Origin: a virus
Direction: 5' to 3' (one strand)
Length of the DNA: 36,552 nt
UHGV virus genome: UHGV-0029170
Positions within the stretch are counted from its first letter, which is position 1. The number at the start of each line of letters is the position of its first letter. Both the position numbers and the translations under genes were made by a program. Under the pieces are notes generated by a model. That model worked only from the letters and a program-made list of their open reading frames with translations, ran no database searches and was not told where the DNA came from. Below are positions 16,732 through 18,716 of this stretch, one piece after another.

Positions 16732-16755
16732 GAAAAAAGCGCCAGTAGGCGCTTA
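16732..16755 (-). terminator. Terminator-like hairpin + U-tract between GT and tape measure genes (minus strand)
   Basis: Minus strand: AGCGCC-TACT-GGCGCT overlapping the GT stop, followed by TTTTTTCATATG. Confidence 0.4.
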
Positions 16756-17393
16756 TTGTGATTTTTTGTAGATCTGTTTTAGGTATTCACCCTCCAGGAT
16801 CTGCAAGTCAAGCAATGCCGCTTCTCGATTGTCGATTTTATACAATTCAAAGAACATAGGCAATGTATTATAGTCCAGCCCCGTTGGGCCATTCATCCCA
16901 ATGCGCCATTGCGTTTGCATGGCCTGGAATAGTTGCCAACTTTGGGCGGTCTGCTCATCGAAGAAAATTTCCTCTAAATCAGCCTCGTAATCCGATCGCC
17001 GTAAACCATACTCAGCAAGCTGGCGATCGGTTAACTCAGGCTGAAGCGTTAGATAAACAGCCCGCCTTAGACTTTTGCACGATGCCCGGCAAGCGCGGCC
17101 ATGTACGTTTGAGGCAATGCCATGACAAAGGAAGGGTAATGCGAGCACAGCCAGGAAATGTTTTCATCCGTAAATTCTTCGTCAAGATCCCAGCCTTCGG
17201 CCATGAAGCGGATAAAATCCACGTTACCTTTCGGCGCTTTTTCTTCGCTTTCATAAAACTCCTTCATTTCATCGGTGGAGTGATGTTTTACCGTCATGTT
17301 GATGGTTGCATCTTTGCCATCGGGGCAAGTGAAAGTTACCGGAAGTTTGAAGGAAGGAAGCTCTCCGCCAATACGAATTTTAAACTTAGCCAT
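16753..17393 (-). CDS. Tail assembly chaperone GT-like fusion produced by programmed -1 frameshift (predicted)
   Basis: ORF 16753-17148 is in the -1 frame relative to G and overlaps its last ~80 nt, arrangement conserved in siphovirus G/GT pairs; candidate slip region GCA AAA G just before the G stop; exact site not verified. Confidence 0.45.
17067..17393 (-). CDS. Tail assembly chaperone (lambda G-like)
   Basis: ATG at 17393 with AGGAG RBS (MAKFKIRIGG...); directly upstream of tape measure; overlapped by -1 frame ORF 16753-17148. Confidence 0.65.
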   Translation of the reverse strand: MAKFKIRIGGELPSFKLPVTFTCPDGKDATINMTVKHHSTDEMKEFYESEEKAPKGNVDFIRFMAEGWDLDEEFTDENISWLCSHYPSFVMALPQTYMAALAGHRAKV

Positions 17394-17469
17394 TTTATAA
17401 TCTCCTGATTGGTATGTATTGAATGCTATTATGCATAAAAAAAGGCGAGGCACAAGCCCCGCCAGTTAA

Positions 17470-18126
17470 TTAAGCGTTGGTTACAGGTAAGAAAACGTGC
17501 GAACCTTTAAGCGCAACGTTAAGGGCCACGGTTTCCATTTCGTTGACAGCCGTCGACGGGATATCATCGAAGGAAGCCGTTCCAGACCAATAACGAACTT
17601 CCGCCGCTCGCGGTACATACATGTACATCGCTTTCGCCTCTTTGCTCGCATCGGCAGCACGCAGAACCGGGTAGATCGCGTTGTCGTACTCATGCGCAAA
17701 TTGGTAGTTTAGCGTTACCGCCGATTTGTAGGTCGGTTCGGACTGCTCGCGTTCGTCGCTCAGGCACTGATAGTTATAATACTGCTGCTCGTTACCATCC
17801 TTACCCAAATCCTGAATGCATGGCAATTCGATCCAGTCAGAGATTATGCTTACGCTGCCAGTTGCCGCAGTGGGGTACTTGTTGGCGTCAGAAGTGTCGA
17901 ATTCTTCCAGGGTCGCAACACCCGCCGCCACTTCTTTAACGCGAGCCACCTTGTTCACAAAGTCGCTCCAAGTGCAATCGGTGAAGATTACAACATCGCC
18001 AGCCTCAAGCGCGCCAGTAGCAACCGTGATTTTTGGGTTTTTCGCGTCGTTAGTCATTGCGGAAAACGGGATCGCCGCCCCGCGTGCCTTCTCAAAGAAG
18101 ACCTTAGCACCGTTTGGTAAATGCAT
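17470..18126 (-). CDS. Major tail (tube) protein
   Basis: ATG at 18126 with GGAG RBS (MHLPNGAKVFF...); 218 aa; position between tail completion genes and G/GT. Confidence 0.65.
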   Translation of the reverse strand: MHLPNGAKVFFEKARGAAIPFSAMTNDAKNPKITVATGALEAGDVVIFTDCTWSDFVNKVARVKEVAAGVATLEEFDTSDANKYPTAATGSVSIISDWIELPCIQDLGKDGNEQQYYNYQCLSDEREQSEPTYKSAVTLNYQFAHEYDNAIYPVLRAADASKEAKAMYMYVPRAAEVRYWSGTASFDDIPSTAVNEMETVALNVALKGSHVFLPVTNA

Positions 18127-18281
18127 ATTCAATACTCCTGTTTGATGTTTGGTTAACCTCACCATTATGCCCGCTACTTAGCTGGAAGGCAAGAAATTAT
18201 AAGCACCTCGAATCGCCATGCGTAGCGTCACCACCTCCATTTCATTCACTGCTGCTGGCCTCAATAAAAATCTTGCTCCCG

Positions 18282-18716
18282 TTAGGTAAGTGCATAACCG
18301 CTCGCCTCCATTTTTTCACATCTTACCGTAAAGCGAACGGGGAGGAACCACCCGGTTTGCGCCTTCTGCACGCCGTGAACCTCGGCCCACTCGCTTACAT
18401 AAAGATTAATTTCTTTTTCGCCCAAGATTTTACCTTCAGGGAAGTATTTTGCAACATTTTGCGCGATTAACCTTGCTGCGTCGGTGCCAGTTCCGGGTTT
18501 AAAGATCACATCGACCTGAACCAGCCCCAGGTAAACGCGACACTCCCTGGAGAGGCTAACAGATCGGGAATCCGCTTCGACGTATGAAAATTTAAGATAC
18601 GTGTCGCCGTTGGCTGGCGGCGTAAAGTCAACGTTATCGCTCGCGATCTTAATCCCGTTATCGGAGGCAAATTTAGCCGCCGCTGCCTTGCATTTTAACG
18701 CAATATCATAGTGCAT
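18282..18716 (-). CDS. Putative tail terminator / tail completion protein
   Basis: 144-aa ORF immediately upstream of major tail gene; assignment by position only. Confidence 0.35.
   Translation of the reverse strand: MHYDIALKCKAAAAKFASDNGIKIASDNVDFTPPANGDTYLKFSYVEADSRSVSLSRECRVYLGLVQVDVIFKPGTGTDAARLIAQNVAKYFPEGKILGEKEINLYVSEWAEVHGVQKAQTGWFLPVRFTVRCEKMEASGYALT

Follow-up and report, generated by a model that had tools for sequence, protein, structure and literature searches.

Why does a sequence resembling the start of the major tail gene stand a short distance ahead of that gene itself? The DNA analysed here (the window, a stretch of 36,552 nt taken at its full length) belongs to a Klebsiella webervirus (Drexlerviridae) whose structural genes lie on the minus strand. 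Within it, a 17-codon open reading frame occupies 18242-18295 on the minus strand, running from an ATG at 18295-18293 to a TGA stop at 18244-18242; its DNA, ATGCACTTACCTAACGGGAGCAAGATTTTTATTGAGGCCAGCAGCAGTGAATGA, encodes the peptide MHLPNGSKIFIEASSSE followed by the stop. An earlier note had reported this frame with correct coordinates and sequence, had recognized its likeness to the start of the tube gene at 18126, and had offered two explanations: the beginning of another allele of that gene, left behind by recombination, or a short upstream reading frame. The note had also recorded that the ATG overlaps the end of the preceding gene, and we find that it falls within the final codons of that gene, which is the tail terminator gene (ATGCACTTACCTAA; TAA stop, 18284-18282). 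A Shine-Dalgarno sequence, GGAGG at 18309-18305, lies 9 nt 5′ of this ATG.

The tail terminator gene on the 5′ side (18282-18716, minus strand; 144 aa) matches PF13554 at E = 1e-23 and is annotated as ‘tail terminator’ in phages Kp109 and KP36; its last 14 nt overlap the feature under study. On the 3′ side stands the gene for the major tail (tube) protein (17470-18126, minus strand; 218 aa), which begins MHLPNGAKVFFEKA and is assigned to PF08813 (E = 2e-51) and phrog_584. Its product matches the PDB entries 9l0f and 9jlf at E ~ 1e-70. Like the earlier note, we place the start of the tube gene at 18126 rather than at the in-frame ATG at 18165, because a ribosome-binding site (AGGAG, 18139-18135) lies 8 nt upstream, the gene is annotated with a length of 657 nt in relatives and the solved homologues align from residue 1. 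The mechanically called frame runs 13 codons further upstream to the ATG at 18165 (MVRLTKHQTGVLN). The ATG of the 17-codon frame and that of the tube gene are 169 nt apart, with a gap of 115 nt from the stop of the former to the ATG of the latter.

The two stubs and their parent gene

A tblastn comparison of the 174-nt interval with the tube protein returned two pieces, both too similar for coincidence. The N-terminal piece matches the start of the real tube protein at E = 1e-5, with 9 of 12 residues identical. The second piece, missed in the earlier note, is C-terminal: the minus strand from 18252 to 18178 encodes a tail-tube C-terminus, ending AVNEMEVVTLRMAIRGAYNFLPSS before a stop, in a frame that differs from that of the 5′ piece, and its segment AVNEMEVVTLRMAIRGAYNFLP matches tube residues 193-214 (AVNEMETVALNVALKGSHVFLP) at E = 2e-7. 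The nucleotides of the two 5′ ends are identical at 26 of 39 positions, and the first 12 codons differ by four synonymous and three non-synonymous changes; the description of these differences as mostly synonymous was overstated. Direct nucleotide alignment of the interval with the real tube gene gave no significant match, the best being 13 of 14 positions on the wrong strand. The likeness is visible only at the protein level and against the true parent gene.

That parent is present in relatives. A query of 1601 bp that includes the site found matches in 351 phage records, at identities of up to 93%, and almost all of these are Klebsiella phages. Among the matches listed, the query spans 1601 bp in 12 records, collinear with the window; in other records it spans ~2171 bp, where two consecutive ‘major tail protein’ genes are annotated, and some of these ~570-bp-longer records label the pair ‘tail depolymerase’ and ‘major tail protein’. 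In Kp109, the upstream paralog (UP, 228 aa) starts in overlap with the terminator gene (ATGCACTTACCTAA) and is followed by a 51-nt spacer with a ribosome-binding site and then by the downstream paralog (DOWN, 215 aa). The tandem pair is flanked by the tail terminator gene on one side and the tape-measure chaperone on the other, with UP ranging from 227 to 232 aa and DOWN from 215 to 218 aa. Full-length identity between the two proteins is 43%; both are members of PF08813 and phrog_584, with matches to the solved tube proteins 9jlf and 9l0f.

When the window is aligned with Kp109, a single clean gap of 569 bp appears, on either side of which an end of the upstream gene is kept. The 5′ stub (18253-18295, minus strand) corresponds to nt 1-43 of the ~687-nt gene and is identical to Kp109 gene 12 at 43 of 43 positions; the comparison with relatives that the earlier note had proposed decided the case. 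The 3′ stub (18178-18252, minus strand) corresponds to the last 75 nt, including the stop TAA, and is homologous to the 3′ ends of intact alleles, with 64-67 of the 75 nt identical to various ones among them. Beyond it, the original 51-nt intergenic spacer between the paralogs (18127-18177, minus strand) is collinear with that of Kp109 and contains the AGGAG at 18139-18135.

The deletion junction falls between 18253 and 18252. UP nt 44-612 are missing, which amounts to 83% of the gene; what is left in the window comes to codons 1-14 in one frame and the final 24 codons with the stop in another. The PF08813 core domain, which an intact relative matches over residues 101-224, is absent from the remnant. 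Because 569 nt is not a multiple of three, the loss changed the frame and created an early stop, which comes four codons past the junction: the 17-codon frame consists of the 5′ stub, four frameshifted codons (SSSE) and a stop. We conclude that the feature is very probably a non-functional deletion scar, a pseudogene of a second tail-tube gene.

The reconstructed history is short. The sampled weberviruses descend from an ancestor in which the tail terminator gene was followed by a tandem pair of PF08813 tube paralogs, with UP starting inside the end of the terminator gene and DOWN being the real major tail gene. In the lineage of the window, a single out-of-frame internal deletion of 569 bp then took out UP nt 44-612. 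What it spared was 43 nt at the 5′ end and 75 nt at the 3′ end, along with the 51-nt spacer of the original arrangement and the ribosome-binding site in it; the 17-codon frame is the 5′ stub continued as far as a frameshifted stop. Derivation of the intact two-gene phages from the scar by insertion is very unlikely, given the homology at both ends in different frames. By inspection against the available intact alleles, we found no microhomology at the junction, where CCAGCA is joined to GCAGTG with no bases in common. A GCCAG repeat was considered as the deletion mechanism and rejected, as it predicts a product of the wrong length.

The earlier note was right that a dead remnant of the start of a tail-tube gene lies here. 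Its proposal that the remnant is a displaced allele of the same gene, left by recombinational allele replacement, could draw on the resemblance of the stub to the real gene's start (9 of 12 residues) and on the mosaicism of weberviruses in this region, but we consider it highly improbable. The stub is identical throughout its 43 nt to a distinct gene, a separate paralog that stands in tandem with the tube gene in ~80 phages and is 43% identical to it, and the presence of a matching 3′ stub and of the original spacer is the footprint of an internal deletion, not of an allele swap.

Three states of the locus and the 17-codon frame

Weberviruses come in three forms at this locus: with both tube genes (class A, intact UP), with a long scar (class B, the 569-bp deletion) or with a short scar (class C, a larger deletion of ~630 bp). 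A sample of 60 records, evenly spaced out of 348 matching webervirus GenBank records, comprised 15 of class A, 2 of class B and 42 of class C, with 1 cut at the record end. The two tandem tube paralogs are carried by about a quarter of the weberviruses sequenced, and class C, which includes KP36, accounts for ~70%. Counts made independently of this sample are in agreement with it. A UP orthologue (>=60% protein identity) was found in 81 records. Two tube-gene matches occur in 82 records, which among the matches listed are weberviruses only; other Drexlerviridae genera have one tube-gene match each among the matches listed.

The class B junction occurs in exactly 13 GenBank records, together with two IMG/VR contigs and one metagenome contig. 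The 13 records are nearly identical to one another across the scar, and the class B records listed carry no annotation within the interval. They have the junction position and the junction string AGCAGCAGT in common with the window; the junction sequence differs between carriers (GAGGCCAGCAGCAGTG versus GAATCAAGCAGCAGTT), and the 5′ stub shows no changes relative to the intact gene in the window and four in the 13 records. Judged by these sequences, the window is a distinct, less decayed descendant of the same deletion event. Neither its own version of the scar nor the intact parent allele was found in GenBank, IMG/VR or metagenome contigs, the best regional match in GenBank being 93%: its 3′-stub pattern, GTGAATGAAATGGAGGTGGTGACGCTACG, had no match in IMG/VR, and a degenerate junction pattern found only the other version, in the two IMG/VR contigs and the metagenome contig. 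Between the window and KLPN4, one pair with few sites, 12 of 74 positions (16%) differ in the scar outside the terminator overlap and the last 30 nt. At four-fold degenerate sites the same two phages differ by 7.6% (terminator gene) and 28.9% (tube gene). The value for the scar falls between these and, for one pair and few sites, is consistent with a roughly neutral rate.

Class C leaves ~17 nt of the 5′ end, mostly codons of the terminator gene too, and ~35 nt of the 3′ end. Intact UP alleles have two endings, LPSS (GCCATCCAGCTAA) and LPA (GCCAGCCTAA); class B scars end in the former, Kp109-type allele and class C scars in the latter, L012-type allele, with the downstream spacer type also matching the allele type in both. 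The terminator-gene tree places class B among the class A phages, the window adjoining Kp109, and puts class C together with L012, a phage of class A. In the tree of the tube gene the classes are intermingled, which points to frequent recombination in the region. Classes B and C appear to be separate deletions, by which the gene would have been lost at least twice, as read from allele signatures in a mosaic genome. Phages of the KP36 type resemble the window in having lost the upstream paralog and kept CTTATAAyTTCTTGCCA, the 17-nt spacer and CATAAT; they differ in the larger deletion (~630 bp), in ATC for the start codon and in a scar derived from the LPA allele, the last of which argues for a separate event. 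A two-step origin, with a second deletion inside the class B scar followed by recombination, is unlikely.

Class C loci show two further peculiarities. The terminator protein ends GYPST instead of GYALT (for example in KP36, L035:890-960), and the old stop of the lost gene is mutated in most class C loci, which read CCTGG instead of CCTAA. An older loss in class C than in class B would fit these sequences, the ATC start and the mutated stop agreeing with it.

The carriers also bear on whether the 17-codon frame is a functional upstream frame, a 17-aa leader peptide whose translation is coupled to the terminator gene and which tunes expression of the tube gene. We give this very little credence. 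The frame has a good Shine-Dalgarno sequence at a distance of 9 nt, its ATG overlaps the end of the terminator gene, it is open in all class B carriers and it is probably translated; however, the Shine-Dalgarno sequence and the ATG are both codons of the overlapping terminator gene, so that their retention needs no further explanation. The C-terminus is a by-product of the frameshift and differs between class B carriers in residues and in length (IEASSSE versus IESSSS before the stop; 17 versus 16 aa), with the 13 GenBank carriers and two IMG/VR contigs reading MHLPNGSKIFIESSSS followed by the stop. Nor is the start conserved, as ATC replaces ATG in class C, in ~70% of weberviruses. Coupling is not possible, since the tube ATG follows the stop at a distance of 115 nt and is served by a ribosome-binding site of its own. 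There is no RNA structure to modulate either: the minus strand of 18110-18310 folds no better than its shuffles (z = +0.94), and the whole window gave 0 matches to Rfam at the gathering threshold. On this comparison, the 17-codon frame is without sign of selection.

Two other readings are scarcely credible. Tandem paralogs with similar ends can mislead assemblers, and an assembly artefact would have collapsed the two genes into a chimeric stub; but the nucleotide identity of these paralogs is too low to collapse (26 of 39 at the start), the junction joins UP to UP and not UP to DOWN, and it is found, with later substitutions, in 13 GenBank genomes that are independent of one another, in two IMG/VR contigs and in one metagenome contig. 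A programmed frameshift fusing the N- and C-terminal stubs, which are both open, adjacent and one frame apart, into a mini-protein of ~39 aa has a negligible chance of being correct, as 18240-18260 holds neither a canonical slippery heptamer nor a stimulatory structure, the junction is not conserved between carriers (GAGGCCAGCAGCAGTG versus GAATCAAGCAGCAGTT) and the ATG of the 5′ stub is missing from class C.

A predicted promoter and the sequence spared by deletion

The 3′ end of the scar behaves differently: its last ~30 nt hardly vary and are, from their sequence conservation, clearly under constraint. A near-invariant element, CTTATAATTTCTTGCC, lies inside the 3′ stub (18188-18203, minus strand) and is present in class A, B and C phages. 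Among 26 distinct sequences from 44 loci of all three classes, CTTATAAyTTCTTGCCA is invariant or nearly so. In the intact UP alleles compared, 16 in number, a single codon encodes each of the Y, F, L and P residues within the element, and N is encoded by AAT with one exception (F20, which has Lys AAG), whereas conserved residues adjoining the element use two to four codons. The freezing of synonymous sites within the element indicates constraint on the DNA rather than on the protein.

A pattern scan placed a predicted sigma-70-type promoter at 18164-18192 (minus strand), with a −35 hexamer TTGCCT (18192-18187), a 17-nt spacer and a −10 hexamer CATAAT (18169-18164). The window's TTGCCT-17-CATAAT scores 9 of 12 matches and most relatives, with TTGCCA, score 10 of 12. 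Over the 26 distinct sequences, the −35 is TTGCCA in 25 and the −10 is CATAAT in all 26, and the spacer between them is always 17 nt although it has 8 distinct sequences, the two main types of which differ at roughly half of their positions. The window alone has TTGCCT in the predicted −35, a slightly weaker match. No further copies of the element or of the −35/−10 pattern were found within the window; as a single site there, it is not a repeated phage promoter motif. The ATG at 18165 lies inside the predicted −10 and has no ribosome-binding site, and automatic callers could mis-start the tube gene there.

The curated KP36 record annotates two promoters at the homologous site, itself a prediction, and a rho-independent terminator after the tube gene at a site equivalent to that of a hairpin in the window. 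This hairpin (17437-17463, minus strand; GGCGGGGC and GCCTCGCC followed by seven T residues) is strong, resembles an intrinsic terminator and lies right after the tube gene. Together, the predicted promoter and the hairpin would bracket the tube gene as a single promoter-to-terminator unit. Pattern and conservation suggest that the promoter drives the major tail gene and limits where deletions can end. The A/T-rich TTATAATTT just upstream could be similar to an UP element or could be the −10 of a second promoter, as KP36 annotates. The conserved element could also have another role, for example as an RNA processing site or a recombination linker.

These observations suggest why particular pieces of the lost gene persist. 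Coding for UP would play no part in the survival of two of them. The first 14 nt of the remnant would be kept as terminator codons. The last ~30 nt would survive as the carrier of the −35 hexamer, and possibly of the A/T-rich upstream element, with the −10 lying in the spacer. If promoter and hairpin terminator together make the tube gene a high-output transcription unit in its own right, a deletion would be viable only when it stops upstream of the promoter element, which would explain the retention of this element in both deletion classes. Read in this way, the sequence that the deletions spared marks out a likely promoter of the gene whose product is the most abundant tail protein.

Gene remnants at mosaic or deletion joints are a general phenomenon in tailed phages, as is familiar from lambdoid and mycobacteriophage genomics. 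Like them, the scar in the window is short, decaying and unannotated, the fragment of a gene still complete in relatives, and it is a new example of the well-known deletion-derived gene remnant, a case of ordinary gene decay. Unlike them, it keeps both ends of one gene, which indicates a single internal deletion, and one of these ends appears to be kept by regulatory constraint. That two deletion classes both spared an apparent embedded promoter is the modest point it adds.

The intact upstream paralog and its labels

Weberviruses are widely isolated as therapeutic Klebsiella phages, and the more interesting question that the locus raises concerns the gene that is intact in relatives rather than the scar. 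KLPN1 (ORF34/ORF35), Kp109 (genes 12/13) and F20 (gp43/gp42) have the same position, terminator-stop overlap, spacer and ribosome-binding site as the window; they hold a complete upstream gene of 227-232 aa, whereas in the window 83% is lost and the rest is frameshifted. The scarred phages are natural knock-outs of the second tube gene and could serve for functional study.

Intact UP proteins (L001:1106-1789, L004:2922-3617, L053:577-1269) combine a conserved C-terminal core with a hypervariable N-terminal part of ~100 residues. The N-terminus occurs in at least three unrelated-looking versions (the Kp109 type, the SegesCirculi/PWKp15 type and the F20 type), and nucleotide diversity is ~0.3 in this part and <0.1 in the core. 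Both paralogs keep two cysteines 18 residues apart (LPC and YQC; C115/C133 in Kp109 UP, C103/C121 in the tube protein of the window). The pair corresponds by position to C108/C126 of the NBD2 tube protein, an inter-ring disulfide pair (PMC13576161). The second cysteine is lost from one of the intact upstream alleles, L005, which reads YQF there.

As a matter of speculation, the tube may take up UP as an optional subunit whose variable part is exposed at the surface. A fuller version of this idea, which we put forward as possible but doubtful, is that UP is a genuine optional tail-tube subunit that co-assembles into the tube or caps it and modulates interaction with encapsulated hosts, that weberviruses are dimorphic for it, and that it was shed at least twice through promoter-limited deletions. 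T5 pb6 and P74-26 are likewise siphovirus cases of a duplicated tail-tube module; according to PMC13576161, their duplicated domains are fused in frame in one protein that forms pseudo-hexameric trimers and is essential. Weberviruses, by contrast, have two separate genes, one of them evidently dispensable.

Database labels give the pair another identity. In the KLPN1 record (KR262148), both tube genes (KLPN1_34/35) are labelled ‘tail protein/depolymerase’, both paralogs in the VAC6 record (MZ428224) carry depolymerase labels, and ‘putative tail depolymerase’ or a similar label stands on plain tail-tube proteins in further GenBank records. The labelled paralogs show only the tube-protein domain in Pfam and PHROGs. 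The label traces to the hypothesis, quoted in PMC12023860, of a possible endosialidase-like domain in ORF34/35. A study of 21 Klebsiella phages reported some weberviruses, including VAC6, with ‘two different depolymerase genes’ (PMC10100988). Such two-depolymerase counts are probably annotation artefacts that have been carried forward. Our literature search found no paper on two tube genes, dimorphism or the scar in weberviruses.

Downstream of the tube gene, two overlapping reading frames (17070-17393 and 16753-17148, both on the minus strand) look like a tape-measure chaperone pair produced through programmed frameshifting, and KLPN1_36 is annotated as a two-piece join.
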